Shown: piece after piece, positions 5,735 to 62,809 of the stretch
Position numbering within the stretch: the first letter of the stretch is position 1
Layout of the letters: each line of letters begins with the position of its first letter
Assembly: GCA_035656295.1 (NCBI GenBank)
Contig: DASRSU010000008.1
Coordinates: 983,420 to 1,047,419 of the forward strand
DNA: 64,000 nt
From: Candidatus Bathyarchaeia archaeon
GTDB taxonomy: Archaea; Thermoproteota; Bathyarchaeia; 40CM-2-53-6
Direction: 5' to 3'
Made by a program: the position numbers and the translations under genes
The notes under the pieces: model-generated
Seen by the model: the letters and a program-made list of their open reading frames with translations, nothing else
The model's database searches: none
What the model was told of the DNA's origin: nothing

Positions 5735-5849
5735 CTATGATGCAGAAACAGTCTTATGCGCCTGTTCGGCCTATAACCACACTCGGTAGGTAGAGATCAC
5801 GCCAAGACAGTTCACGTACCGCGGCCACAGCGTTGACGAGCTTCGACAA

Positions 5850-6200
5850 ATGTCCATGGACGAGTTCATCAAACTACTACCATCACGACAACGCAGGTCA
5901 CTTGTGAAGGGTCTGACGAATGAACAGCGGATCCTCCTCGAACACATCCGACAGGCCCGCAAAGAGAATGGTGGCAAACCCGTGTCGGTCAAGACACATT
6001 GTAGAGACATGATCATTATTCCAGAAATGTTCGGGCTCACTCTGCAACTGCACGCTGGCAAAGAGTATGTACCGGTCGAGATAAAGCCGGAAATGATCGG
6101 GCACTTTGTTGGAGAGTTCGCGATTACAAACCAGAAAGTCGTACACGGGACCCCTGGAATAGGTGCGTCGCGTTCGAGCATGTACGTTCCGCTCAAATAA
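5850..6200 (+). CDS. rps19: 30S ribosomal protein uS19
   Basis: Strong uS19 C-terminus (IKPEMIGHFVGEFAITNQKVVHGTPGIGASRSSMYVPLK). Conserved N-terminal residues (FTYRGHSVDELRQ) lie in frame upstream back to the stop at 5787-5789 with no ATG/GTG/TTG, so the true start is probably near 5790-5800. Confidence 0.85.
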   Translation: MSMDEFIKLLPSRQRRSLVKGLTNEQRILLEHIRQARKENGGKPVSVKTHCRDMIIIPEMFGLTLQLHAGKEYVPVEIKPEMIGHFVGEFAITNQKVVHGTPGIGASRSSMYVPLK

Positions 6201-12527: not shown

Positions 12528-12683
12528 CAGAATTGAGTCTACCCGGTCGGGAAGCGGCGTCTACGAGTATTTCTTGCTTGTTTCCGGTGGTTCGAGAACA
12601 TTTTTCAAGCACGCGGGGCCCAGATCATCTCATACCCCGGTGGATTTTTTCTGATCAACCTTCCCTACAACTCGAACCTGAAA

Positions 12684-30935: not shown

Positions 30936-32096
30936 TCAATTCGCCGGGTATCGCAGGACTGCTGCTACTTTGCCGAAAGAATCTCGTAGCATTCGCCCCT
31001 CCTCCGTCTCTTCCGAGATAACCTCGACCCGCGTGCCGGCCTTTTCGGCGTAGTCGAGAAAGCTGTCGATAATATCTGCGTGATCGGCTACCTCAAGAAG
31101 CGGCTTTCCACAGTTCTTGCATGGTCTCGTGGCCAGTTCGGTCATGATCGCGTGCGCCTCGAACCGGGTTCCTCGAAATTCCTCCTCATATGAACAGTTC
31201 TTGCATTTTAGCAGCAATCGCTCGCCCTCTAGTTTTTCGGAGATGAATAATGTTTCTACGATCCCCTTCTCGAGATACTCCTGGACTTTCTTCTCTCCGA
31301 AGGCGGCTTTGCCCGTTTCGTGGCCTAGCTCGTAAAGGAATTTCTGGACGAGCTGTTTCTCCTCGTTGTACCGGACTCCCTTCAGTATGTCGTTGCTTTT
31401 CTCAACTACTTCCTCGACGCCTGCCTCGCTGGTATAACTCGTGTCAACTATCGACAACACCTTCTTTTGCAACATGTATTGCATGTATTCGCCTTCCGCC
31501 CAGACGTACTTGGTGGGTCCTGGACCGCCGATAATGATTCCTTTCAGGTCAGGAATCTCTGACATGATTTCATTGAAATGCTGTCCTACTCGCTTGTAGT
31601 AGTCGTTCGCGACTTGTTCTCTGATGCGCTCAAATCGTCTTGCGGATTGTCCGCCCGCACGGCTCTTGCCTGGCATCCCTGAAGTGAACGTCTTGACGAT
31701 CTCCACGCGGCGGCCTTTGAGAGTCGCAACGACAGCCTCGGTCCCGTCGATTACTAGGATTCCATAGGTGTCTTTCTCGGCGACGAGCGCCAGCAATGGT
31801 TCGACGTGAAATCGAGCGTCACAACGGTAGAACCCGACAGTTATCGGCTCTGGAGGGATCAGAGTATACACTTCCATCTTCTCACTGCCTGGACCGTTCT
31901 GTGGGATCGCGCCGGCGAATACGACGAGGCCCGTCGGCGGGGGTTCCTTGAAGAGTCTCAGCCGTTGGCTAGCTTTCTCGATTGCCTCCTGCACGTTTTG
32001 ACGAGTGGTGCGCGACTTGATGTTGCTGGCAGTACCTAGTTCTTCTCGCAGTTGGCCGAGGACTTCATGGATCTTCCTATCAGGGGGGACGTACAC
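30936..32096 (-). CDS. prf1: peptide chain release factor aRF1
   Basis: NIKS and GGQ motifs (SRAGGQSARRF); C-terminal zinc-ribbon insertion. The conserved N-terminal region (...EGRGTELVTVYVPPD) continues 33 codons upstream of the GTG at 32096 to an in-frame TGA at ~32196 with no canonical start. Confidence 0.85.
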   Translation of the reverse strand: MYVPPDRKIHEVLGQLREELGTASNIKSRTTRQNVQEAIEKASQRLRLFKEPPPTGLVVFAGAIPQNGPGSEKMEVYTLIPPEPITVGFYRCDARFHVEPLLALVAEKDTYGILVIDGTEAVVATLKGRRVEIVKTFTSGMPGKSRAGGQSARRFERIREQVANDYYKRVGQHFNEIMSEIPDLKGIIIGGPGPTKYVWAEGEYMQYMLQKKVLSIVDTSYTSEAGVEEVVEKSNDILKGVRYNEEKQLVQKFLYELGHETGKAAFGEKKVQEYLEKGIVETLFISEKLEGERLLLKCKNCSYEEEFRGTRFEAHAIMTELATRPCKNCGKPLLEVADHADIIDSFLDYAEKAGTRVEVISEETEEGRMLRDSFGKVAAVLRYPAN

Positions 32097-32440
32097 AGTA
32101 ACGAGTTCAGTGCCTCTTCCTTCTTTGCGGGCTAGCTGTTCCAGAGTTCTTTTGAACTTGAAATGTGCGACGGACTTAGTGCTGGACGCTTTGCTTCACC
32201 GTCCCTCAATAATTGATTTGCCGATTCTGGAGTCCCGACTATTAGTTCAGAGGAGAAACGTTTCCTTTCCTAAACTGACTTCCATCTGTCGATTCTGTCT
32301 CTATCATATTAGGCGCTAAAATTGTATAAAACGCTTTTTCCAATGTCAGTTCCCTCTATTTTGGTCGACATCGAATTAGCAGGGTTCCGTTGGTTCACAA
32401 CATTGTGCCGGGGATGTTGCGCGCTTGAACCCGCCTTTGA

Positions 32441-38815: not shown

Positions 38816-39157
38816 TCAGCCATACGGATTTTCAAGATGGCCGTGTTCCTGAACCCATTTCTTCGCCATTTCCTTCTTCACGGTAAGAAATGGCAGGAGT
38901 TTTTGGAGGATCTCCCGAGTTCTGTAGCCGCTGTCGATTTCGAACCGATAATACCGACCACGAGGATGCTTCTCTCCGTTGATCATGCCTTGTCCCAGGA
39001 ATTTGCGGACTCGTTCAAGCAGTACTCTGTCGTAGCTGCAGATTCTGAACCGGTGTTTCCATCCTCGCCGGCGTCTATGAACATCTCGGACATTCCCTGA
39101 CTTGTCGAATTGCGTTGCTAACTGGGGCCATGTGAGAGGACTGACTGGTTTCGTCAT
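38816..39157 (-). CDS. possible degenerate single-motif LAGLIDADG-like protein
   Basis: LATQFDKSGNV resembles LAGxxDxDG, and downstream pattern (RYYRFEI...LQKLLPFLTVKK) is typical of the LAGLIDADG fold. Weak. Confidence 0.3.
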   Translation of the reverse strand: MTKPVSPLTWPQLATQFDKSGNVRDVHRRRRGWKHRFRICSYDRVLLERVRKFLGQGMINGEKHPRGRYYRFEIDSGYRTREILQKLLPFLTVKKEMAKKWVQEHGHLENPYG

Positions 39158-39720
39158 CGCATCACAGCCTCGATGTGACGTCTGACTTCTCGTCCGACCT
39201 CGTCAGGAGTCATTCCTCGAGCGTCAACTTCAACGTTGACAGTCTGCGTCGAGGATCCTATCGGACTCATGTTCCATACTCGAACGTCCATCCCACCCTG
39301 TCCAGGAGTAGTGGACGGGCCCACGGGACCCGGATCATTTTCATGCTGTCTTATTGCATCGGAGAGGCCCCAGGCCGCCAGTGCTGTTGCGGCGCCTGCG
39401 AGCAGAATCCAGCCGGGAGGGCCTGCCGCGAGATCAGCAAGGTTCGTAGCAATGTTGATCATTGACCGGATGACCGCTGATGATCTCAGCATGGGAGCGA
39501 GCCGGGCCAGCCCGTTGATCAGGGTTCCGACAGCTGCAACGAATCCGAACGCTTTGTCGAGACCTTCCGCCTGGGTTTTCGATAATAGTCCGAAGTGTTC
39601 TGCAATGTTCGTGATGAATAGAGCGGATCCTCCCATGGCAGCGATTCCACCACCAATCGCCCGAACCTTGCTCTGGATACTGTCGCCAATACTTGAGATG
39701 TGATCGATTCCACGGAACAC
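39154..39720 (-). CDS. Ala/Gly-rich multi-TM protein, paralog A (candidate virion or membrane protein)
   Basis: Three hydrophobic A/G-rich helices plus a ~60-aa C-terminal domain. Paralog of 39769..40350. Confidence 0.4.
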   Translation of the reverse strand: MFRGIDHISSIGDSIQSKVRAIGGGIAAMGGSALFITNIAEHFGLLSKTQAEGLDKAFGFVAAVGTLINGLARLAPMLRSSAVIRSMINIATNLADLAAGPPGWILLAGAATALAAWGLSDAIRQHENDPGPVGPSTTPGQGGMDVRVWNMSPIGSSTQTVNVEVDARGMTPDEVGREVRRHIEAVMR

Positions 39721-39768
39721 TAACCGGAGATCATGAACCGCTCCAATAGCACCAAGCGACGTAGCAGC

Positions 39769-40350
39769 TCAGCCCCTCCGGAGACGTTCACGGTCGATCA
39801 GGATCTCGAGATGCCGTTTCACCGCAGCAGCCGTCTGCTCTGGACTACTGGATCCTGTAATCGTGATATTTGCGGAGACATTGTTTCCGCCACCGCTGCT
39901 GATCGGCATCAAACTAGTCGTGATGGGCCCAGTGGCCGCAGTAGTTCCAGGAGCATATCCGCCCGCAGCATTGCTTGGATTCTGTACAGTCTTGTTGGCT
40001 CCAATGTTCTGTGAAAGGGCGTATGCTGTCAATGCTGTGACTGCCCCCGCCAGAATTGCCCAGCCGAGGGGCCCTGCCAGGGCGTTTGCTACTGCCGTAG
40101 CAGCATTCATGATGCTCTGAGCACTAGCAGCAGCCATGATCATTGGTGCTAGTCTTGCAAGCACGTTGATCATCATGCCCGCAGCTGCGATAAACGCGAA
40201 GGTGCGGTCGAGAGATTGTGCTGTTTTCTTGTCCAGGTAACCGAACTGTTCTGCCAAGTTCGTGACGAAGAGGCCTGTTCCACCGAGAACTGCCATCGCT
40301 CCTCCCAGGGCCCGTACTTTCGACTGGATAGTGTCAGTTACGTGGCTCAC
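39769..40350 (-). CDS. Ala/Gly-rich multi-TM protein, paralog B
   Basis: Same architecture and conserved N-terminal block (IQSKVRA(I/L)GG...LF(I/V)TN(I/L)AE(H/Q)FG). Confidence 0.4.
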   Translation of the reverse strand: MSHVTDTIQSKVRALGGAMAVLGGTGLFVTNLAEQFGYLDKKTAQSLDRTFAFIAAAGMMINVLARLAPMIMAAASAQSIMNAATAVANALAGPLGWAILAGAVTALTAYALSQNIGANKTVQNPSNAAGGYAPGTTAATGPITTSLMPISSGGGNNVSANITITGSSSPEQTAAAVKRHLEILIDRERLRRG

Positions 40351-40416
40351 ATGGTCAATGCCACGGAAGATGATCCTGAGGTCGTGAACTGCTCCAATAG
40401 CACCAAGCGACAGTTT

Positions 40417-52495: not shown

Positions 52496-53596
52496 CTAGA
52501 GGATTTCGCGCGTGAGTGCCTCTCTAAACTTGACACGACAGTCTTGGCACTGGAAGAGTCCAATTAGTACGTTCTTCTTCGACTTTCCGCCCTTCAGTTC
52601 CCAGACCTTGGCCGGCTTCGGTACGTCAGCACCACACTTTGGACAGACTACTTTGTAGAACTGGCTTGGCAGAGTTAGCTCCGTCTTTGAAAGGTCAGGG
52701 CTCGCAGGTACGCTGGGCACAGTCTCGGTTGTAGGTATTGCTGTTTGCACTTGTGAAACGTCTGGGCTCACCATCGTTGAAGACGTTTCGATTGCAGGTA
52801 CGTCGTCCACTACTTTTACGACTAGCGCGTCCGCGACATCTTCCGCAGCGTCAGCGTTCGCAGTTGACTCGTCGAATACTGGTCCAATGTCAGCGCTCAC
52901 GGTTGGCACTGTAAACGAAGATGGAGTCCAGGCTTGAACGGGGGCCTCTGGCGTGACCGTGGCTGGGGCGTTATTGGTTTCCGGGTTGGGGAAGGATGTG
53001 CCGTTAGTCTGTGGCTGGATCTGCGGTGATGGGCTTGCCTGACCACCGATGTCCGCTACGATGCGTTGAGGAAGAGTCGGCGCCGTGGGGATCATTGGGG
53101 TAGATATTGGTGGCGATTGCAGGGACGAGTTTGTTGCGGGAACAAAGACGGATGGCTTGTCTGGTATCGTTTTTGTCCAAACATCAGCTGTCAAGGGTTT
53201 CGGTGCTATCGCGGGATAGTTTTGCTTGAACTCTGCGGGTGCGAGGGGTTTGGTCTCGATGTGGGATAGTACGTCTATCATCTGTCTGATGTCTTCGATG
53301 CTCTTGAGGTTTCTTTGTAAGAGTCCCTTGAATTCTTCGCGTTGCGCGCGGTATTCTGACTCGTTCACTTCTCCGGTGACGTATTTTGTTTCGAGGTTCA
53401 GCAATCGTTGTGGAGTGTTGGCAATCTGGTCCTTTGTCTCTTTGAGATGGTCGTTCAGTGTATAGCCCAGGACGTTGATCCTGTCTTGCAGGTCTTGGGA
53501 TGCTCTTCCATAATCCTCGTGGATTGTTCGCATTTTTTCCTTGTAGCCGTTGATTTCACTGATCAGTTTCTCTAAGGTTAGGTCGTTTAGTCCCAT
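52496..53596 (-). CDS. coiled-coil protein with Pro/Thr/Ser-rich linker and C-terminal zinc ribbon
   Basis: Heptad-like N-terminus, low-complexity middle, CPKCGA...CQDCRV. Confidence 0.4.
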   Translation of the reverse strand: MGLNDLTLEKLISEINGYKEKMRTIHEDYGRASQDLQDRINVLGYTLNDHLKETKDQIANTPQRLLNLETKYVTGEVNESEYRAQREEFKGLLQRNLKSIEDIRQMIDVLSHIETKPLAPAEFKQNYPAIAPKPLTADVWTKTIPDKPSVFVPATNSSLQSPPISTPMIPTAPTLPQRIVADIGGQASPSPQIQPQTNGTSFPNPETNNAPATVTPEAPVQAWTPSSFTVPTVSADIGPVFDESTANADAAEDVADALVVKVVDDVPAIETSSTMVSPDVSQVQTAIPTTETVPSVPASPDLSKTELTLPSQFYKVVCPKCGADVPKPAKVWELKGGKSKKNVLIGLFQCQDCRVKFREALTREIL

Positions 53597-53992
53597 TTTT
53601 TTCTCCTAGGGAATTCCTGTCTACTGGGTGAAATGGTAAAAGGATTCGAAGCCGCAAAACGCCAAAAATCAACTGTCTAAAGCAAGGATAACGACTGCAG
53701 ATAACAACGGCGTTGTCAAGTAGTCCAATAGAAACATTGAGGTTTTAACTTGCTGTGCTAGAGCAAAATTGGGTAAAACACAACAAATCAACCATTTTTC
53801 GTTTCGCATATAAACCAAAACCGTGTTGTGGCCCCCACAAGAGACTGGTCTCTTTACTGTTACAATCCCACAACCTATTGCGTGCACTAGAATCCTGATC
53901 ATCTGCTTGTAGCGAAACCACACCTCAACGTGTCAAGAACTCACTTTGCGAATTGCCCTGTCAAACGAGCGTTTAGAGGAAGAAGATAGACA

Positions 53993-54649
53993 ATGTCCTA
54001 CAAGTCCTTGAAGAACTGGGAGAGGGGCCAATCGTCGCCTCTACTCTCAAGAATAGGTGAACGCGTCCACCACCAAGAACCGCTCAAAGAGAGAATATCG
54101 CAGTGCATGTACAGGCTCAAAGTACAACAGAACCGGCTCGAAGGAGCCAACCTGAAAACTCAACAACACGACAAGATGCTCTTCGATAAGTGCGTCCAGG
54201 CCCAGATGTCTAAGGACACAGCGCGAAGCACAATGTACGCCAACGAGATCGCAGAGATCCGCAAAATGGCCAAGGTTACCATGCGAAGCGAACTCGCAAT
54301 CGAACAAGTAGTCCTCCGCCTCGAAACCATCCAAGAATTCGGAGATGTAGCTGCAACGATGGGGCCAATCGCAGGAGTCGTCAGCGCTATCAAGAACCAG
54401 GTCCAGGGAGTAATTCCACAAGTCGGCTACGAGCTCGGAGAAATATCGGAAGCGCTCAACGGTGTAGTCATCGAGGTCGGCGAAGCCACTGGCACGAGCT
54501 ACGATCTTGAGACTTCTGGCATGGAGGCACAGAAGATCCTGACCGAAGCGAACACCATAGCAGAAACTCGGATGCGTGAAAAATTCCCGGAGTTACCCTC
54601 GCCAGCAGGCGTCTACGAACGCCCTGCTGAGCCAGTATTACCGAGGTAG
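53993..54649 (+). CDS. cdvB: CdvB (ESCRT-III/Snf7-like) paralog 1
   Basis: Snf7-like helical core conserved with the other two paralogs (YANEIAEIRKMAKVTMRSELAIEQVVLRLETIQEFGD). Confidence 0.8.
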   Translation: MSYKSLKNWERGQSSPLLSRIGERVHHQEPLKERISQCMYRLKVQQNRLEGANLKTQQHDKMLFDKCVQAQMSKDTARSTMYANEIAEIRKMAKVTMRSELAIEQVVLRLETIQEFGDVAATMGPIAGVVSAIKNQVQGVIPQVGYELGEISEALNGVVIEVGEATGTSYDLETSGMEAQKILTEANTIAETRMREKFPELPSPAGVYERPAEPVLPR

Positions 54650-54682
54650 GAGGATAACTCCACCCAATTTTTTCATGAGGAC

Positions 54683-55399
54683 ATGAAAATGATTGCCTTA
54701 GACCAAGTTAGAAGATTTCTCGGACGATCGCTCCAAGATCCATACGGGAGGACGTTCGGCAAGGTTGTCGGTATCTCCGCGAGTCTCAAAGACGAGGTTA
54801 CAGCAGTAGGAATCGAAGTAGGCAACGGTGAATTTGCCCAGTGTCCCGGAGACCGGATAACGATCAACGGAGACAACCTGGTCCTTGCGCCGGCTTGGAA
54901 GATTGAAGCTGAAGAGTTCCGAAAGGAATTCGACATCGTAACTAGGCGTCTCAAAGCTCTCGACGAGCTGTTCAGTCTCGGAGACATCCAGAAGGACGTC
55001 TATGAGGATCTTAGGAAACAGCACGAGGATGCAATCAACGAGCTGAAGTCGAAAAGGGAACAGTTACTTCAAATTCTGTCAGAACGCACCGGCACTCTAA
55101 CCACGCAGCTCCGACAGCTCCAGACTCACCTTGCAGGAAACAAGATGCTCCATTCCTCTGGAGAGTTTGATGATGACAATTACAAGGCGGCCAGCGACGC
55201 GATAGAAATCGGCCTCATACGCGCCACTGCGGAAAGGAAGGATGTCGACTCGATCTTCAGCTACCTGTCCAAGCTCGACTCGACCCCGTCAAGGTTCGTG
55301 CCTTCGCCTCAGCAAATACCAGTCCAGACTCAGTCTCAACCCGCGTCCCAGACCCAATCCCAGGGACAGGTTATGGTACTCCACGTGAGAGAGACCTAG
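54683..55399 (+). CDS. cdvA: CdvA (PRC-barrel N-domain plus coiled coil) paralog 1
   Basis: PRC-barrel-like N-terminus (FLGRSLQDPYGRTFGKVVGI) followed by a long coiled coil, the thaumarchaeal CdvA architecture. Confidence 0.75.
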   Translation: MKMIALDQVRRFLGRSLQDPYGRTFGKVVGISASLKDEVTAVGIEVGNGEFAQCPGDRITINGDNLVLAPAWKIEAEEFRKEFDIVTRRLKALDELFSLGDIQKDVYEDLRKQHEDAINELKSKREQLLQILSERTGTLTTQLRQLQTHLAGNKMLHSSGEFDDDNYKAASDAIEIGLIRATAERKDVDSIFSYLSKLDSTPSRFVPSPQQIPVQTQSQPASQTQSQGQVMVLHVRET

Positions 55400-55513
55400 G
55401 AGCTGAAGAGCCTGTTTCGGAAGCTAGAGGAGAGAGTTCACCCGATACCGCTCAAGGAGCGGATAAACCAGGCACTTTTCCGACTCTCCAGCCAGAAAGA
55501 CAAACTGGAGCAC

Positions 55514-56212
55514 ATGTCCGCACGGCTCCAGCAGCGGGACAAGGAAATGTTCCAAAGATGCATTGGAGCGCAATTGTCCAAGGACAACGCTCACGCCGCC
55601 CTCTACGCAAACGAGTGTGCCGAGATACGCAAGATGGCGCACATTACCCTCAGCAGCGAGCTTGCACTGGAAAGAGTAGTTCTCCGTCTACAAACCATCG
55701 AGGAATTTGGAGACATCATGGCCCAGATCGCACCTGTAATAGGCGTTGTACGCGAGACTCGCGGAAGGATAGCGGGAGTAATTCCCGAAGTTGCCACCGA
55801 ACTCGGCGAAGTGAACAACATGCTCAGCGACATGAGCCTCGAAACCGGCGAAGTCCAAGACCAGGAACTCGACATGGGAGCCTCAAGCGCCGAAGCGAAG
55901 AAAGTATTGGAAGAGTCTAGTACGATCGCATCACAACAGATGAGAGAGAGATTCCCGGAGCTGCCGATGCCTGAGTCTCGTCAGCCTACTCCCGCGAAGA
56001 GTGACGCACCAGAAGCGAAGATCCCCGTTGCCATAACCTCCGGCGGATACGAAGAGGCTCTTCCCATCGAAGATAGGCTCCTCGACTATATCAAAAGCCA
56101 CGACGGCGAACTAAGTGTCAACTCCTGCTCCGCGGAACTTTCGATTTCTACAAACGACATTAGACGGTCACTCCAGAAGCTCAAGGATGATGGAAGAATA
56201 GTAATGGACTAG
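55514..56212 (+). CDS. cdvB: CdvB paralog 2 with C-terminal winged-helix domain
   Basis: Snf7 core plus C-terminal wH (LLDYIKSHDGELSVNSCSAELSISTNDIRRSLQKLKDDGRIVMD). Conserved N-terminal helix continues in frame upstream to the cdvA stop at 55397-55399, with no canonical start. Confidence 0.8.
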   Translation: MSARLQQRDKEMFQRCIGAQLSKDNAHAALYANECAEIRKMAHITLSSELALERVVLRLQTIEEFGDIMAQIAPVIGVVRETRGRIAGVIPEVATELGEVNNMLSDMSLETGEVQDQELDMGASSAEAKKVLEESSTIASQQMRERFPELPMPESRQPTPAKSDAPEAKIPVAITSGGYEEALPIEDRLLDYIKSHDGELSVNSCSAELSISTNDIRRSLQKLKDDGRIVMD

Positions 56213-56428
56213 AACCAGCCACGCCAAAAGCGAACAGTTCCAGTCTCATCGGGGGAGTCACACATCTCGGCTTCTGAAGAGCTTGAATCTCTAGCCGTAA
56301 GATACGCGAAAGAAGCGATTGAGCTAGAAAAGAAAGGATCCAAAAGGCTTGCGGCCACAAAGTACCAGCGAGCAGTAGAGGTACTGCTGAAACTCTGCTC
56401 ACTCTATCCCTCAGCTCCCCAGAACAAG

Positions 56429-57412
56429 GTGTACATGGAACACGCAGAGGTTTATCGGAAGAGGATCCAAGAACTATCCGCAGACCAGGAACCCATTCAA
56501 CACCCTTCGGACTCGACTGAGACCAAGGACTCGAAGAACATCAAGTTCGACCAGTGGGTCTTAACCGAAAAGCCGGACATCACATGGGACGACATTGCAG
56601 ATCTCGAAAAGCCGAAGCGAGCCATCGAAGAGTCAATAATATTCCCGGTGCGTCGGCCCGATCTGTTCCCGCTCGGCTGGCCTCGTGGAATACTATTCTT
56701 TGGACCACCTGGATGCGGTAAGACGCTGCTGGCAGCTGCGATTGCGAGCGAGATCAAGGGCGTATTCTTCTGCGCTGACGCAGCATCCTTGATGTCGAAA
56801 TGGCTGGGAGAGTCCGAACGAAACGTCTCACAACTGTTCACGAAAGCACGGGAAAACGCGGAGAATGGTCAACCTGCAATTGTGTTCATCGACGAGATAG
56901 ACTCTCTGATGGGAGTGCGCGGCGAGGAAGTTGGGGGAGAAGTCAGGGTAAGAAACCAGTTCCTGAAAGAAATGGACGGAATACTTGACAAGAACAAGAA
57001 CCAGCACGTGTACTTGATAGGCGCTACGAACAAGCCTTGGGTTCTCGACGAGCCCTTCATCCGACGGTTCCAGAAACGAATCTACGTGCCACTACCAGAC
57101 GTCAAAGCAAGAATGGACATGTTCCAGATCTATGCCGAGGATTTGAAGTTCGACAACAATGTGGACATGGCCCAGCTTGCAAGGCTGACAGAAGGATATT
57201 CTGGCGGCGACATTCGAGACCTCTTCCAGGCCACTCAGCTCAAGGTAGTTCGAGATTTCTTCCAACATGGAAAGGCAACTGATCCAATTGCCATACCAGA
57301 CCCAATAACGATGGAGGACTTCCAGGCGATTCTGACGACTCGTCGTCCAAGCGTCTCAACTGGGATTCTGAAGCGGTACTACGACTGGGACGAATCGTTC
57401 AAGGCGTTATGA
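56429..57412 (+). CDS. cdvC: CdvC/Vps4 AAA+ ATPase
   Basis: Walker A GPPGCGKT and AAA core. The MIT three-helix bundle continues in frame upstream of the GTG at 56429 back to ~56260, with no ATG/GTG/TTG. Confidence 0.85.
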   Translation: MYMEHAEVYRKRIQELSADQEPIQHPSDSTETKDSKNIKFDQWVLTEKPDITWDDIADLEKPKRAIEESIIFPVRRPDLFPLGWPRGILFFGPPGCGKTLLAAAIASEIKGVFFCADAASLMSKWLGESERNVSQLFTKARENAENGQPAIVFIDEIDSLMGVRGEEVGGEVRVRNQFLKEMDGILDKNKNQHVYLIGATNKPWVLDEPFIRRFQKRIYVPLPDVKARMDMFQIYAEDLKFDNNVDMAQLARLTEGYSGGDIRDLFQATQLKVVRDFFQHGKATDPIAIPDPITMEDFQAILTTRRPSVSTGILKRYYDWDESFKAL

Positions 57413-57532
57413 GGAGGACTGCACACGCTGAACCTTGACGGTACTGATCTTCGCATCCTCGCAGAGCTTGTAGAGAATTCGAAGCAGTCGTATGTAGAAA
57501 TCGGACGAAAACTCGCGCTACACCCTAACGTC

Positions 57533-57907
57533 GTGGCCTACCGAGTAAACCGGCTCGAGGAAGCAGGCATCATACGAGAATACACAACGCTGGTGGACTT
57601 TTCCAAACTCGGCCTCTCAGAACAGGTCATAGTGGCCGCGAACTTTCCACCGAACACGTCACGAGACGATATTCTGAAACAAATCTGCGACATTCCAGAG
57701 ACGGTTAACGTGATCAGTTCTTTGGGAACACCGGAGGGTCTTGTCTTCATTGTAGCACGCAACAAGGAGGACGTTAACGCTGTACTGTCGAAACTGCGAT
57801 CGATGAACTTGGCAATCGACTTCGCATCCTCAGTAATCCGGACCTATGACGAAGGTCGTCTAGGCACGTTCCTGAGGGCCATGGCGGGTACGGACCCGAG
57901 GTTCTAG
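57533..57907 (+). CDS. lrp: Lrp/AsnC-family transcription regulator
   Basis: RAM domain after the ATG at 57533. The HTH (LDGTDLRILAELVENSKQSYVEIGRKLALHPNVVAYRVNRLEEAGII) lies in frame upstream from 57413 with no canonical start. Confidence 0.8.
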   Translation: MAYRVNRLEEAGIIREYTTLVDFSKLGLSEQVIVAANFPPNTSRDDILKQICDIPETVNVISSLGTPEGLVFIVARNKEDVNAVLSKLRSMNLAIDFASSVIRTYDEGRLGTFLRAMAGTDPRF

Positions 57908-57914
57908 TTGAACA

Positions 57915-58379
57915 TTGGAAAGGCCCGCATGGATGATTATCATATTGTCCGCTTTGGCCCCGACAGATATCGCCGATTGGGTCGCGATTGCCGTGCTAGC
58001 CCTTGCATCCATGGAATCCATAGTCGCTGGTTTCGCGCTTGACCTGTTGAAACCGGGGAATTGGATCCTATTTATGATAATTCCTCTAGTTAGTTTGCTT
58101 GCGTCTTTGTCGAACGGTTCGCAGAGAGAAAGGGAAGAGCTGGCGTTCGTTGCCTACGGTAGTCGTCGAGGACATATTCACTTTCGATACTTTCTCAAAG
58201 GAGTCATTATTTCCGTGATAGGTATTTTTCCAGTTCTAGCCGCACAGGTTCTTCTTTCGAACGCGTCGAGCGGGTTGGTGGTAGCGGCGGTAGCCTCTGT
58301 CGGTGCCGGCTTCTTCTATTCAATTCCGAGCTTTCGTCGTCTGGGATCAGGTCACTTCGTAGGACGGTACAAGAGATAG
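57915..58379 (+). CDS. hypothetical integral membrane protein
   Basis: Four hydrophobic helices. Confidence 0.4.
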   Translation: MERPAWMIIILSALAPTDIADWVAIAVLALASMESIVAGFALDLLKPGNWILFMIIPLVSLLASLSNGSQREREELAFVAYGSRRGHIHFRYFLKGVIISVIGIFPVLAAQVLLSNASSGLVVAAVASVGAGFFYSIPSFRRLGSGHFVGRYKR

Positions 58380-59069
58380 TTGACACATCTGCTCAGCGCC
58401 CACTCTTTGCAAGTAGAATATCTCACCAACCAAGGCTGCCTGAGACTATACGATAACGGAATCTCGTTTGAGATGCAAACAGGCGATTTCCTGGCTGTTC
58501 TAGGTGGTTCAGGTTGGGGAAAATCGACACTGGTCAACGTAGTTCTAGGGCTTGAGAGGCCAACTAGCGGCACGTTACACTTGAAGGCGAGAGACGTCAC
58601 GGCCAGTTCGTTCGTGAAAAGGTGTGCGCTGACAAAGATTGCTGCTGTGTTCCAGAGACCTACGAGCCTGTCTGGAATGACTGTTTTGCAGAATTTGCGG
58701 TTAGCACTGTCTCTGGCAGGAATTCCTAGAAAGGAACGAGAAGGTCGAATCCGTGAGTCTCTTGGATTCTTCGGGCTGGAAGGGATCTGGAATAATTATC
58801 CGGAGCATCTTAGTGCTGGACAGAGGCGTAGGATAGATCTTGCTAGGGCGGTCGCTATCCGACCCGAATTATTGGTTCTCGACGAGCCGACTTGCGATCT
58901 TGACTCATCAGCTACGAACCTTGTGATGCCTCTGCTGAGAGGATTGAACAAGGAACATGGAACCTCTATCTTCATGACCACGGCAATTCCTCGACAAGCA
59001 ACTTCTGCTACGCGATCATTTCATTTGACACCCCCGACATTGCTGACTTCTGCGAATAGGACGGCTTGA
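58380..59069 (+). CDS. ABC transporter ATP-binding protein
   Basis: Walker A GGSGWGKST, signature LSAGQRRR, Walker B LLVLDEPT. TTG start abuts the preceding membrane protein. Confidence 0.7.
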   Translation: MTHLLSAHSLQVEYLTNQGCLRLYDNGISFEMQTGDFLAVLGGSGWGKSTLVNVVLGLERPTSGTLHLKARDVTASSFVKRCALTKIAAVFQRPTSLSGMTVLQNLRLALSLAGIPRKEREGRIRESLGFFGLEGIWNNYPEHLSAGQRRRIDLARAVAIRPELLVLDEPTCDLDSSATNLVMPLLRGLNKEHGTSIFMTTAIPRQATSATRSFHLTPPTLLTSANRTA

Positions 59070-59076
59070 GCGGGGG

Positions 59077-59691
59077 TTGTGCTTGTTCGAGCAGAACTCG
59101 TCAGTTCTCGAAAAGATCCGGGAAGCGGTGAAGCCTACTCCGATCAAGCAGCGCATAGACCATGCAACCTTCCGGTTACGAACCCAATCTAACAAGCTGC
59201 AAAGGTCAATTGACCAGATGGAGTCTCGAGAATCTACAATCCACGAGAAATGCGTCAAAGCATTAGAGGCTAGAGATACTCAGACTGCCACAGTTTTCGC
59301 GAACGAGTGTGTAGAAGTCAGGAAGCTGTTGAAGACCTCTGTCAAAAGCCAGATTTGCCTAGAACAGGCGGTTTTGAGGCTTGAAACGATAGAACAGTTC
59401 GGCGACATGGCACACGGCATGAGCATGGTGAAAGGGATTCTCGGAAGCATCAGAGGAGAACTTGCTGGCAAGCTTCCAGAAATCTCAACGGGGATAGGGG
59501 ACGTCGAGGATTCTCTTGAGAGGCTCACCGGTGAGATTGGCCAGACTATCGATGCCGAGGGTGTCTCCATTCCGTCAAACGATGAGTCGGCACGAATCCT
59601 GAGAGAAGCGGATCTAGTCGCGGAACAGAAGATGAAAGAAAAATTCCCGGAAATTCCAAACACTACTGCTGGTGCAAACAAACTCAGGTAG
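59077..59691 (+). CDS. cdvB: CdvB paralog 3
   Basis: FANECVEVRKLLKTSVKSQICLEQAVLRLETIEQFGD is conserved with paralogs 1 and 2. Confidence 0.8.
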   Translation: MCLFEQNSSVLEKIREAVKPTPIKQRIDHATFRLRTQSNKLQRSIDQMESRESTIHEKCVKALEARDTQTATVFANECVEVRKLLKTSVKSQICLEQAVLRLETIEQFGDMAHGMSMVKGILGSIRGELAGKLPEISTGIGDVEDSLERLTGEIGQTIDAEGVSIPSNDESARILREADLVAEQKMKEKFPEIPNTTAGANKLR

Positions 59692-59701
59692 ATGAAGACT
59701 A

Positions 59702-60325
59702 ATGATCTCAACAGAACTGGAGGTAAAGGCACTTCTCGGAAGAAGAGTCACTGACAATTACGGCAGAAGTATCGGACGGATCATCGCGATTGATCGAAAT
59801 GCATTCGGTGAGATGGAAGGGGTCCAGGTTGAAGCGGCGGCAGGACAGATAGTCGAGGCCAAAGCAACCCAGCTCGCCGTAACACCTAGTACCGTCAAAC
59901 TTACCGCTGACTGGAAGGTCCAGGTTGACCTGTTGGTCTCGGAATTGTCGCTGATGCGGAAACGAGTGCTAGCACTCGGGTCCTTGAAGGATTCAAAGGA
60001 TATCGACTTGGAAATCTACGAGGAACTCCTAACAGCTCAGAGGGCGGGCTATGCGGACAAGCTCGCCATAGGAAGACAGCTGGTGGAACTGATGAAACAG
60101 AGACTACGCGACGTTACTGGACAAGTTGGATCCTTGACGAGGCATCTTGCAACTGCAAAACTCGACCACAAAAGCGGCGTCCTAGACGAGCAGTCGTTGA
60201 GAATCACTGAGGACTCGATCCAACCCACACTAGCGCCATTGATCGCGGAAAAGACGGATCTTACAAAGTCACTACGAGAACTTGAACCCGTCCTGGCGGA
60301 CCAACACGTGTCCCTCTCGCGTTAG
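59702..60325 (+). CDS. cdvA: CdvA-like paralog 2 (PRC barrel plus coiled coil)
   Basis: LLGRRVTDNYGRSIGRIIAI PRC-barrel-like N-terminus and coiled coil; same architecture as 54683..55399. Confidence 0.7.
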   Translation: MISTELEVKALLGRRVTDNYGRSIGRIIAIDRNAFGEMEGVQVEAAAGQIVEAKATQLAVTPSTVKLTADWKVQVDLLVSELSLMRKRVLALGSLKDSKDIDLEIYEELLTAQRAGYADKLAIGRQLVELMKQRLRDVTGQVGSLTRHLATAKLDHKSGVLDEQSLRITEDSIQPTLAPLIAEKTDLTKSLRELEPVLADQHVSLSR

Positions 60326-61199
60326 ACATTGCTCAATTTCTTACACGAGATCGTGTCGTAGTCAAATCTCGTTTTTCACGAGAGCTCCTTCCAAGATCTC
60401 TTCGGCCCTCCCGGAACAGGAAAAATCGTGTCCGAACACCCACGAAAACACCGTTGCACGCACAAGGAATTAGGCCCCATGCGCATTCATGCTCGAATAA
60501 AGCCAGCTTGAGGCAGAGAAATCACATTTTCAAATTTTCACAAAAAATAAGGTTTCTTTTTTCTAGGGCCCGGGGGTAGCCCAGTCGCGCGCGCGAGCCC
60601 GAACGAAAAACACGTGAAAAAACCATGATTTCCCTTGAGCCCGCACGGGTTCATACTCGACCAGAATAAGCACCTAGAAGAACCAGCAGTGCACACTCCT
60701 CATATCCTCTAGCAGTTCCAGCACAATCCCGGATTCAAAATGCTTCCCGTAGAATCGCCCAGAACAAGCCCTGACCAAGGAATAAAGCACGCGATTCCCT
60801 ACCTGCACGCCCTCACGCTTGAATCTGCATTAAGTCGGGTAGTCAACACTACTGACTAACAGCGACTTTACGGCTAGAATCCCGCAAATCGCGTATGATC
60901 AGCCCGTCCAGCGAGGGAGCTCAAAAGAGAAAATTCTAGCAAGAGGAGGACTCTTCGCAAGCCAATTATCAGACCATGCTATAGCTTGGGCAAGGGCGAG
61001 CGCGACACGCCCGCCTCGAGAGAGCCGGGCTGAGGGAAGACACTTTGATCTTCACAGTGAGGCTTGGGTGTTAGTGCCGCGGGCGACAGGGACCATAAAG
61101 GTTCCAAACGCGAACCTCGCCCCCTCAAAAACCATCCAGGCCCAAACGTACAATCTTATTATTCCAACACTAGGAAACGTCCGACCATAGGAGGAGCCA

Positions 61200-62313
61200 A
61201 TGGACCCGGCCGAACGCATCGAACTCATAACACGTGGAACAATCGAGATCATCCAGAGACAAGAACTAGAACAACTGCTCGCCAAGACCAGGAAGCCCCG
61301 CGCGTACTGGGGCTTCGAACCCTCCGGAAAGCAGACAAGAACAATGCCTGCACGGAATGATGCACATCGGACAAGGACTAGTATGCGGCAACAAGATCAA
61401 GGACCTCATCCAAGCCGGCTTCCACTTCACAATCTTGCTAGCCGACTGGCACGCCATGATCAACAACAAATACAATGGCGACATGGACAAGATACACACA
61501 ACCGGCGAATACTTCATCCACTGCTTCACAGCCCTCGGAATCCCGCGAAATAACGTCGAATACATCTGGGCATCCGAACTAGCGGCAGAAAGCGAATACT
61601 GGAACCGAGTCCTCAAAATAGCCAAAGTCACAACAACCAACCGAGTCATGAGAGCATTACCCATACTCGGACGAGAACTAAAGACCCAGGACACAGACGC
61701 CGCCAGCATCTTCTACCCATGCATGCAAGCAGCCGACATCTTCCAGATGCAACTGGACCTCGCATGCGCCGGAATCGACCAACGAAAAGCACACATCCTA
61801 GCCCGTGAAGCAGGCGAACGACTCGGATGGGGCAAACCAGTAAGCCTCCACATCCCACTCCTGATGGGACTCGGCGGAGCGCAGGGCTTTGAGAAGGCGA
61901 GCTTCGACGAAGACCCCAAATTGAGCCAAGTAATCGCCGCCAAAATGTCGAAAAGTAAGCCCGAAGACAATATCCTCATTCACGACACCCCCGAACAAAT
62001 AGCGGACAAGATGCGCAAAGCCTACTGCCCTCCACGAATTGTCGAAGGAAACCCAGTCCTTGACTATTGCCGCCTCCTAATCTTCCCAAGAGAAGAGCCA
62101 CTCATACTGGAACGCGACAAGAAATACGGAGGAAACCTAGAATTCAACAAGTACGAGGAGCTAAAACAAGCCTATGTCGCAGGCAGCGTCCATCCAGAGG
62201 ATCTGAAAAGGAACGTGTCCCGAATTTTATCGGAGAGACTCAGCTCCGTCAGGGAATACTTCAAGAAAAATCCAACACCCCTCCAAGAGATGCGCAAAAT
62301 CAACGCCTCGTGA
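61200..62313 (+). CDS. tyrS: tyrosyl-tRNA synthetase, apparent frameshift near 61330-61360
   Basis: The N-terminal part (AYWGFEPSGK) is in one frame and the rest (MHIGQGLV...KMSKS...) in another. The two parts are separated by a 25-nt segment that does not align, leaving them out of frame by one nucleotide. Confidence 0.75.
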
Positions 62314-62320
62314 AAAGCAA

Positions 62321-62809
62321 TTGCAGGTGCCAAAGAGACTTCGGGATCGGGCTCGGCTCCGAAACCCGAGGATTGACTACTACGCTTGGAAGATGGAGCA
62401 AACCCAAGAAGTGCTGCAACAGCTCCTCAGCGAATCAGAGGCAGGAGTGCCCATAGTTGTTGAGGGACGTCGTGACGAAGCTGCACTGCGAAAACTAGGA
62501 ATCAACGGCATAATCCATTGTCTCAAAGCTCGGGGAGAATCCAGGTTTGAGTTTCTCGAGAGGTTAGACGGTTCAGACGAGGCAATACTATTGACCGACT
62601 TTGACAGGGAGGGTAGGGAGTTGACAGAGTGGTTGCACAACGAACTGTCTCGCCGAGGTGTGAGAAGTGATTTTACACTATGGCGAAGGATTAGATCACT
62701 CGCAAGGACAGAAGTTCATGCAGTCGAAGAGCTTCCCAGTTTCATCCGGGCACTAGAAGCAAGGTCCCAGGGCCTTAGACAAGTCGACCCACAGCATCCC
62801 AGAAGGTAG
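62321..62809 (+). CDS. small Toprim-domain protein
   Basis: Toprim-like acidic motifs (VVEGRRDEAAL...LLTDFDREGRE). Confidence 0.5.
   Translation: MQVPKRLRDRARLRNPRIDYYAWKMEQTQEVLQQLLSESEAGVPIVVEGRRDEAALRKLGINGIIHCLKARGESRFEFLERLDGSDEAILLTDFDREGRELTEWLHNELSRRGVRSDFTLWRRIRSLARTEVHAVEELPSFIRALEARSQGLRQVDPQHPRR

Follow-up and report, generated by a model that had tools for sequence, protein, structure and literature searches.

Conserved genes without canonical start codons in and around a Bathyarchaeia Cdv gene cluster

Described cases of initiation at other codons

The CdvA/ESCRT-III/Vps4 (Cdv) division cluster of TACK archaea has a counterpart in a 64,000-nucleotide (nt) stretch of DNA from a Candidatus Bathyarchaeia archaeon (NCBI GenBank assembly GCA_035656295.1, contig DASRSU010000008.1, positions 983,420 to 1,047,419 of the forward strand), here called the window and numbered from its first base. 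The likeness lies in the gene set, cdvB1-cdvA-cdvB2-cdvC, together with a flanking gene for an Lrp/AsnC regulator (lrp). The proteins themselves are ordinary; the novelty is in how their translation appears to begin. Three of the five genes (cdvB2, cdvC, and lrp) have no ATG, GTG, or TTG codon from which their conserved N-termini could be translated.

Translation table 11 includes CTG, ATT, ATC, and ATA as alternative start codons, and the AUU of infC is the classic bacterial case. Non-canonical starts in bacteria are very rare exceptions, tied to autoregulation. The starts proposed here resemble them in being led by a Shine-Dalgarno (SD) sequence, in standing one mismatch from AUG, in being conserved at positions where relatives have a canonical start, and in the presumed use of initiator tRNA and an N-terminal methionine. 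They differ in frequency (some seven of ~70 genes in the window, those for a ribosomal protein and a release factor among them), in a codon set that adds ACG, GCG, and TCG, and in their host, an archaeon with eukaryote-type initiation factors.

Two other kinds of system invite comparison. Termination-reinitiation coupling was reportedly described in archaea and bacteria by Huber et al. in 2019 (cited in PMC7531240), the cases being overlapping stop/start pairs with canonical starts. The Bathyarchaeia cluster is similarly a tightly packed operon, with the upstream stop in or beside the next SD at the cdvA/cdvB2 and cdvC/lrp junctions, but cdvC and the further genes for ribosomal protein uS19 and release factor aRF1 are not close to an upstream stop. 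In plant organelles, C-to-U editing creates AUG from ACG start codons; genomic ACG at the start of conserved genes whose relatives have ATG is found here too, although ATH (ATC, ATT, or ATA) and GTT starts would be beyond this kind of repair. Archaea are not known to have any editing machinery.

The eukaryotic parallel is near-cognate initiation, in which CUG, ACG, and AUH are read by Met-tRNAi with the e/aIF2 and e/aIF1 machinery. In a ribosome profiling study of Haloferax volcanii, near-cognate codons made up ~30% of the putative alternative sites of initiation, and the authors set them aside (PMC7261190). These eukaryotic and haloarchaeal codons are mostly starts of alternative or upstream open reading frames (ORFs), whereas those discussed below would be the sole available starts of conserved essential genes, fixed across many species. 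According to a 2021 review, non-canonical translation events in archaea had been demonstrated only in elongation and termination (PMC8211752), and nothing on Bathyarchaeia start codons was found in the literature searched. An ATC start is already implicit in one annotation set (the NCBI CdvC records of four metagenome-assembled genomes, MAGs); the clade-wide pattern, NCG starts in particular, is apparently undescribed.

Start regions of cdvB2, cdvC, and lrp

The genes cdvB2, cdvC, and lrp are probably intact and of full length, with SD-driven initiation at CTG 55412, ATC 56264, and CTG 57428. All five genes of the cluster are on the forward strand, and translation of positions 53963-57950 in a single frame gives CdvB1, CdvA, CdvB2, CdvC, and the Lrp/AsnC regulator in series, with no further in-frame stops. 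The first two, unlike the other three, have ordinary ATG starts: cdvB1 (53993-54649; ESCRT-III paralogue 1) at 53993, where orthologues have ATG or GTG, and cdvA (54683-55399) at 54683 or 54689, where orthologues have ATG at the corresponding position. The cdvB1 stop is a TAG at 54647-54649; that of cdvA, a TAG at 55397-55399, overlaps the SD of cdvB2. From the proposed starts, cdvB2 would occupy 55412-56212 (CTG 55412-55414, stop TAG 56210-56212), cdvC 56264-57412 (ATC 56264-56266, stop TGA 57410-57412), and lrp 57428-57907 (CTG 57428-57430, stop TAG 57905-57907). Past the preceding stop, the first ATG, GTG, or TTG is ATG 55514 for cdvB2 (codon 38), GTG 56429 for cdvC (codon 72), and GTG 57533 for lrp (codon 40).

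A first-pass annotation, made by a model from the sequence and its ORFs, had placed the conserved N-termini of all three proteins ahead of any canonical start, and both the ORF list and Pfam domain positions bear this out. The CdvB2 segment FRKLEERVHPIPLKERI does align, as had been proposed, with the N-termini of paralogues CdvB1 and CdvB3, and CdvC aligns at its N-terminus with Bathyarchaeia orthologues beginning M-SASEELE. CdvC is Vps4-like (MIT, AAA, and Vps4_C): AAA scores 127.6 bits and Vps4_C 23.1 (cut-off 21.3), AAA_lid_3 is also matched, and the MIT match, at 26.6 bits just below its cut-off of 30, covers residues 28-89 of the post-stop translation. Lrp has matches to HTH_24, HTH_AsnC, and AsnC_trans_reg, with HTH_AsnC at residues 8-49 of its post-stop translation. 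Both the MIT domain and the Lrp helix-turn-helix (HTH) are thus placed upstream of or across the first GTG, as the annotation had also suggested.

Nonsynonymous (pN) and synonymous (pS) divergence was estimated by the Nei-Gojobori method for the window against 17 close relatives, a comparison in which synonymous sites are saturated. For the N-terminal 33 codons of cdvB2, pN is 0.124 and pS 0.754; for the N-terminal 54 codons of cdvC, 0.090 and 0.764; and for the N-terminal 34 codons of lrp, 0.027 and 0.826. In the in-frame stretches just upstream, pN is 0.71, 0.72, and 0.69, respectively. (Ungapped values for the body of cdvC are invalid at several loci, where the linker has indels, and were not used; in this comparison the cdvC anchor of L004 also fell on a wrong site, its start codon being scored separately.) The N-terminal segments are coding and under strong purifying selection, and the constraint begins at the proposed start codon.

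SD strength was calculated as the energy of the duplex with a generic archaeal anti-SD, GAUCACCUCCU, which was assumed from general knowledge rather than taken from the 16S rRNA of this genome. A crude count of codons 4-10 nt past any GGAG or GAGG proved uninformative, such motifs being frequent inside genes, and was replaced by a per-gene scan of SD energies. At the three proposed starts the duplexes have energies of -9.1 to -10.1 kcal/mol and are 6-10 nt upstream. In the whole window, 11 gene starts have an SD of -8.5 kcal/mol or stronger; by our own assignment five of these are canonical and six non-canonical.

The cdvB2 SD, AGGAG at 55398-55402, overlaps the cdvA TAG and is 9 nt upstream of CTG 55412. 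Its duplex energy is -9.1 kcal/mol, compared to -5.2 at the first ATG, and AGGAG(G) is conserved in relatives. The codon preceding F-R-K-L-E-E-R is CTG in the window and in related loci L004-L008, L010-L014, L016, L024, L167, and L168, the last two from NCBI assemblies; it is GTG in L001-L003, and L015 has an ATG two codons upstream. L167, the closest relative (91% nucleotide identity to the window over 2.9 kb), shares the arrangement TAG-N12-CTG. Altogether, cdvB2 is without any canonical start in ~16 of 70 Bathyarchaeia loci, distant ones included. The protein would begin M-FRKLEER.

For cdvC, the SD GGGGGAG (56251-56257) is 6 nt upstream of ATC 56264, with a duplex energy of -10.0 kcal/mol compared to -0.1 at the first GTG; relatives carry GAGGGA or GGAGGA at this position. 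The codon preceding S-A-S-E-E-L is ATC, ATT, or ATA in 14 genomes of the clade, 13 of which have no canonical start between the upstream stop and the conserved CdvC sequence. The aligned codon is GTT in L001 and L002, GTG in L003 and L015, and ACG in L057, and in ~45 more distant Bathyarchaeia there is an ATG, TTG, or GTG before SASEEL, with a stop a few codons upstream. The NCBI protein records for L005, L010, L011, and L024 already begin CdvC with M on the ATC. From the ATC, the window CdvC would begin M-SASEELESLAVR.

The lrp SD, GAGGAGGA at 57411-57418, overlaps the cdvC TGA and is 9 nt upstream of CTG 57428; its duplex energy is -10.1 kcal/mol, compared to +1.1 at the first GTG. The codon preceding N-L-D-G-T-D covers the whole canonical set, being ATG in L001-3, GTG in L004-11, L024, and L168, and TTG in L013-15 and L167; it is CTG in the window and in L012. 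ACG 57425 is a possible alternative start. The protein would begin M-NLDGTDLR.

The same non-canonical codons are found in more than 14 independently assembled MAGs of several unrelated projects, as well as in Logan and NCBI contigs. Their recurrence in independent assemblies excludes sequencing error at cdvB2 and cdvC, contrary to the suggestion that clustered errors might be responsible, and on this comparison of assemblies the missing starts are genuine. The orthologue comparison is less clear-cut at lrp, where L167 has a TTG, one base off. Near-cognate initiation (at ATC, CTG, or ACG), also among the explanations first put forward, is supported: the codons align with canonical starts in relatives, SD sequences are correctly spaced from them, and constraint begins there.

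The most striking feature at first reading was that all five genes are in the same frame with single stops between them. One-frame translation confirms this, although the span given for it (54650-57907) starts too late, omitting cdvB1. The gene order cdvB1-cdvA-cdvB2-cdvC-lrp is kept in ~39 Bathyarchaeia loci. Of the 39 in which the five are collinear, a single frame is shared throughout by just two, the window and the distant L020, and 23 different frame patterns are seen in the other 37. L167 is in one frame as well, over the part it covers (a cdvA fragment to lrp). By chance, five co-directional genes would share a frame in (1/3)^4 or 1.2% of cases, for an expectation of 39/81 or ~0.5 loci. 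The window spacers are 33, 12, 51, and 15 nt, and the five genes are in one frame because in this lineage each of these short spacers is, by accident, divisible by three; most close relatives have 13 nt rather than 12 between cdvA and cdvB2, so that these two differ in frame. As far as these loci indicate, the use of a single frame came about by coincidence in this lineage and is not a conserved feature; what is conserved is the lack of canonical starts.

The cdvA/cdvB2 junction has a start region that is evolving quickly. Read in the cdvB2 frame, the end of cdvA is ACG-TGA in most relatives, ATG-TGA (a start followed by a stop) in L002 and L013, and ATG-TAC in L004, where it opens a canonical upstream start for cdvB2.

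Other genes of the window lacking canonical starts

The window genes were screened by Pfam, SD energies, and comparison with relatives, yielding four further cases. With the three operon genes, about 7 of ~70 genes, or roughly one in ten, thus appear to be without a canonical start.

One of these is uS19 (5799-6200, forward strand; post-stop ORF 5790-6200). Its start-aligned codon is ACG 5799-5801, with an ATC adjacent at 5796; the first ATG is residue 21 of the post-stop translation, 17 codons past the ACG. In alignment, residues 6-136 of that translation correspond to 4-132 of Pyrococcus abyssi uS19, for which there is a solved structure. In 80 soil-metagenome contigs (84-90% identity), the codon before P-R-Q-F-T-Y-R-G is ATG in ~22, ACG in ~30, GCG in ~17, TCG in ~8, and GTG and TTG in one each, usually 6 nt after GGGTGA. 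Nearly all loci scored have 51-64 nt between the uL2 stop and this start; in the window the start is ~60 nt past the upstream stop. The protein would begin M-PRQFTYR. In some relatives CTG is found at uL4 and ACG at uL23.

The gene following uS19 in the window is for cysteinyl-tRNA synthetase, while in nearly all of the related contigs (L087-L166) uS19 is followed by the tyrosyl-tRNA synthetase (TyrRS) and Toprim genes, which in the window are at 61270-62809. A rearrangement therefore separates the lineage of the window from these.

The aRF1 gene is on the reverse strand (30936-32189; post-stop ORF 30936-32195), with a probable GCG start at 32187-32189. Counted from the preceding stop, the eRF1_1 domain begins at residue 15 and the first canonical start, a GTG, is codon 33, or 31 codons past the GCG. 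An SD, GGTGA, is 6 nt upstream of the GCG, with an energy of -12.1 kcal/mol. Most relatives begin M-S-x-x-D-S-V-A-R-F-K-F-K-R. The sequence GGTGA-AGCAAA-GCG is found both in the window and in an independent Logan assembly, L081 (94% identity); in three NCBI assemblies (L082-84) an ACG takes the exact place of the ATG of other relatives. The ~240 nt ahead of aRF1 are without a co-directional ORF in the list.

The remaining two cases are tandem paralogues on the reverse strand, with function unassigned and no Pfam match (39154-40416). The first (39154-39762) would start at ACG 39760-39762, behind an SD of -10.0 kcal/mol, its first GTG being codon 16; the second (39769-40413) would start at CTG 40411-40413, behind GAGGAGG (-10.6 kcal/mol), its first GTG being codon 22. 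They have a common N-terminus, SLGAIGAVHDLR, upstream of the first GTG, with ACG and CTG at homologous start positions, and their first 20 codons have eight synonymous and two amino-acid differences.

Three more candidates with ATT or GTT behind an SD (at 12537, 19231, and 42253) were not accepted, there being no sign that the extensions are coding. Another route to aRF1 and uS19 was considered: initiation at the GTG within GGTGA would open a mini-ORF, at whose stop the ribosome would shift by +1. It was rejected: the shift would be +1 in the window and L081 and -1 in L082-84, and the window uS19 has neither such a GTG nor such a stop.

Competing explanations and neighboring features

If these codons are start codons, each protein of the cluster would be translated separately. 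The strong SD 6-10 nt upstream would set the codon in the ribosomal P site, where the ordinary methionyl initiator tRNA would read it with one mismatch beyond its usual first-position freedom, and the proteins would start with methionine. The decoding tRNA, the N-terminal residue, and the efficiency of initiation are what we infer. The relaxed rule would be any base in position 1, U or C in position 2, and G in position 3, or any base in position 3 if position 2 is U. A clade of soil Bathyarchaeia would then tolerate N-T-G, N-C-G, and A-T-H starts in ~1/10 of genes, including uS19 and aRF1. Whether start recognition has been relaxed or reprogrammed throughout the clade, such that N-U-G, N-C-G, and A-U-H initiate ~10% of genes given a strong SD, is a more tentative proposal than that for the three cluster genes, and we hold it as a serious possibility rather than a likelihood. 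It would imply a change in aIF1, in aIF2, or in the anticodon stem-loop of the initiator tRNA, or else an additional initiator tRNA or editing of mRNA start codons; to our knowledge none of these has been described in archaea. A lineage relying on CTG, ATH, and NCG for Vps4, ESCRT-III, uS19, and aRF1 would be a natural system for studying aIF1/aIF2/tRNAi stringency.

There are also consequences for annotation. Gene callers limited to ATG, GTG, and TTG will truncate these proteins, so that CdvC is without its MIT domain and Lrp would lose its DNA-binding HTH. Public databases are inconsistent in this respect: NCBI uses the ATC for some CdvC proteins, while many other entries are truncated, ~50 of 115 close CdvC entries being 301-345 amino acids long and without the MIT domain. 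Such calls distort domain-based conclusions on cell division and regulation in Bathyarchaeia MAGs.

Several points weigh against initiation at the proposed codons. In E. coli, CUG and AUH initiate at 1-3% of the AUG level and other codons at 0.1-1% or less (bioRxiv 10.1101/063800); the start codons given in reviews of initiation in archaea are AUG, GUG, and UUG only (PMC7531240); and aIF1 of Sulfolobus discriminates against non-canonical codons (as reviewed in PMC8211752). It is hard to see GCG or TCG serving a ribosomal protein unless the lineage differs mechanistically, and efficient initiation at such a gene suggests that the initiation machinery of the lineage does differ. At lrp, the single-base difference between the TTG of L167 and the CTG of the window makes an error in this codon formally possible, though the CTG of L012 indicates that this codon does occur there naturally. 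The exact start of cdvC is ambiguous. Some close relatives begin CdvC MEGTLISASEEL or LEGRLVSASEEL, that is, with an ATG or TTG six codons upstream (ATG in L168); at this position there is TCG 56249-56251 in the window, which is less likely as a start, and AAG, AAA, or AGG in other relatives. L167 shares TCG...ATC with the window. An internal isoleucine codon, too, could drift among ATC, ATT, and ATA. ATC 56264 is favored because M-SASEELE is the ancestral start position class-wide, the SD is placed for it, and AAA and AGG are poor start candidates; in some sublineages the ATG or TTG further upstream would seem to have replaced it secondarily. With either choice, the window is without a canonical start for cdvC.

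Some of the cluster evidence would also suit termination-reinitiation coupling, in which a ribosome finishing the upstream gene restarts nearby and the identity of the restart codon matters little. CTG 55412 follows the cdvA stop by 12 nt and CTG 57428 the cdvC stop by 15 nt, with the SD overlapping the stop both times, and in L001 the CTG aligned with the start of a second cdvA-like gene directly follows the upstream stop. However, cdvC starts 51 nt past the cdvB2 stop, and the uS19 and aRF1 starts are similarly or much more distant (see above); since these too are non-canonical behind an SD, coupling is not the general mechanism. Of the proposals in the first-pass annotation, it is therefore one that survives in part: unlikely as the whole answer, it may add efficiency at two of the three junctions, those of cdvB2 and lrp. 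Slightly less likely still is that C-to-U editing makes the starts canonical (ACG to AUG, GCG to GUG, UCG to UUG, CUG to UUG). Four of the five non-canonical classes (CTG, ACG, GCG, TCG) are one such change from a canonical start; at uS19, positions 2 and 3 stay C-G while position 1 varies among A, G, and T; and the lineage shows other RNA-level processing in a probable mRNA intron in TyrRS, described below. Editing would nevertheless not account for all the starts, leaving ATC/ATT/ATA at cdvC (14 genomes) and GTT in L001 and L002 unexplained, and there is no mention of archaeal mRNA C-to-U editing in the literature searched. One or more extra initiator-type tRNAs whose anticodon is altered (CGU, say, to read N-C-G) would explain why the N-C-G series (ACG, GCG, TCG) parallels the N-U-G series that CAU reads, the first position being equally free in both. 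It is improbable all the same: no tRNA gene lies within the window, and the CTG and ATH starts would need yet more tRNAs, making it less parsimonious than relaxed stringency. The tRNA and Rfam scans of the window gave no match, and neither the initiator tRNA nor the 16S rRNA 3' end falls within it; relaxed reading by the initiator tRNA, C-to-U editing, and a variant initiator tRNA are not separable by sequence alone. As for editing of mRNA from C to U, we know of no case in archaea.

The remaining explanations would do away with non-canonical starts altogether. Proteins starting at the first downstream ATG or GTG, lacking the N-terminal helix, MIT, or HTH, with the upstream similarity a decaying remnant, are what callers restricted to the three usual codons do produce, and the short CdvC entries are examples. 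Yet constraint on the upstream segments equals that on the gene bodies, with synonymous divergence saturated, the first canonical codons are without an SD, and a Vps4 without MIT, an Lrp without HTH, or a uS19 without 17 structure-aligned residues would very probably be non-functional; we consider this very improbable. Even less can be said for start codons destroyed by sequencing or assembly errors. The one-base difference at lrp is what such an error would look like, but besides the recurrence of CTG at cdvB2 and ATC at cdvC, the aRF1 and uS19 cases recur across Logan, NCBI, and JGI contigs. The least credible is readthrough or recoding of the stop codons to give CdvA-CdvB2, CdvB2-CdvC, or CdvC-Lrp fusions, for which the single frame of the window, and of L167 over the part it covers, would speak. 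The cdvA/cdvB2 and cdvB2/cdvC frames differ in most close relatives, where a 1-nt difference in spacer length alters the frame relation, which removes fusion as a conserved mechanism; the stops themselves differ (TAG, TGA), and the spacer sequences are unconstrained.

The cluster was placed among its relatives by a CdvC scan of species-representative genomes, which gave 80 loci, nearly all titled as Bathyarchaeota or Bathyarchaeia MAGs; the closest CdvC proteins (82-88% amino-acid identity) are from grassland and other soils. An assembly index queried for an exact copy of the window CdvA gave no match. CdvA matches the Pfam CdvA coiled-coil domain, PF18822 (E = 1.7e-18, 67.3 bits, cut-off 30). 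Neither CdvB1 nor CdvB2 of the window has a Pfam match to Snf7; for L168 there is a precomputed PF03357 match for the CdvB3 orthologue, and a faint CdvB_HTH match for CdvB2. Further division genes surround the cluster: a divergently transcribed gene for a CdvA-like protein with a C-terminal zinc ribbon (52496-53596, reverse strand), a third CdvB paralogue (59047-59691, forward) that starts at TTG, against ATG in relatives, and a second CdvA-like gene (59696-60325, forward), the start-aligned codon of which is CTG in L001. A strong SD, TAGGAGGA (54647-54654, forward; -9.9 kcal/mol), overlaps the cdvB1 stop and has no plausible start codon at the usual spacing; the cdvA ATG is ~30 nt beyond it, and its own SD is weak.

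The TyrRS gene (~61180-62313, forward strand) is split over two frames by 28 nt (61329-61356) between the codons for GFEPSG and MMHIGQG. In 65 related contigs (among L087-L166) there are 22, 23, or 24 nt at the same site, so that all frame offsets occur, which rules out both a sequencing frameshift and programmed frameshifting. With the segment removed, the GFExSG-xx-HIGxG spacing is canonical again. The segment is thus probably an mRNA intron of the archaeal kind, cut by the tRNA-splicing endonuclease; cbf5 is the only such case described in the literature searched (PMC2738675). There are CGGAA repeats on either side of the segment, and the region can be folded into a bulge-helix-bulge-like form whose inner helix shows compensatory changes (GCAGG:CCUGC, GAAGG:CCUUC, GUAGG:CCUAC).

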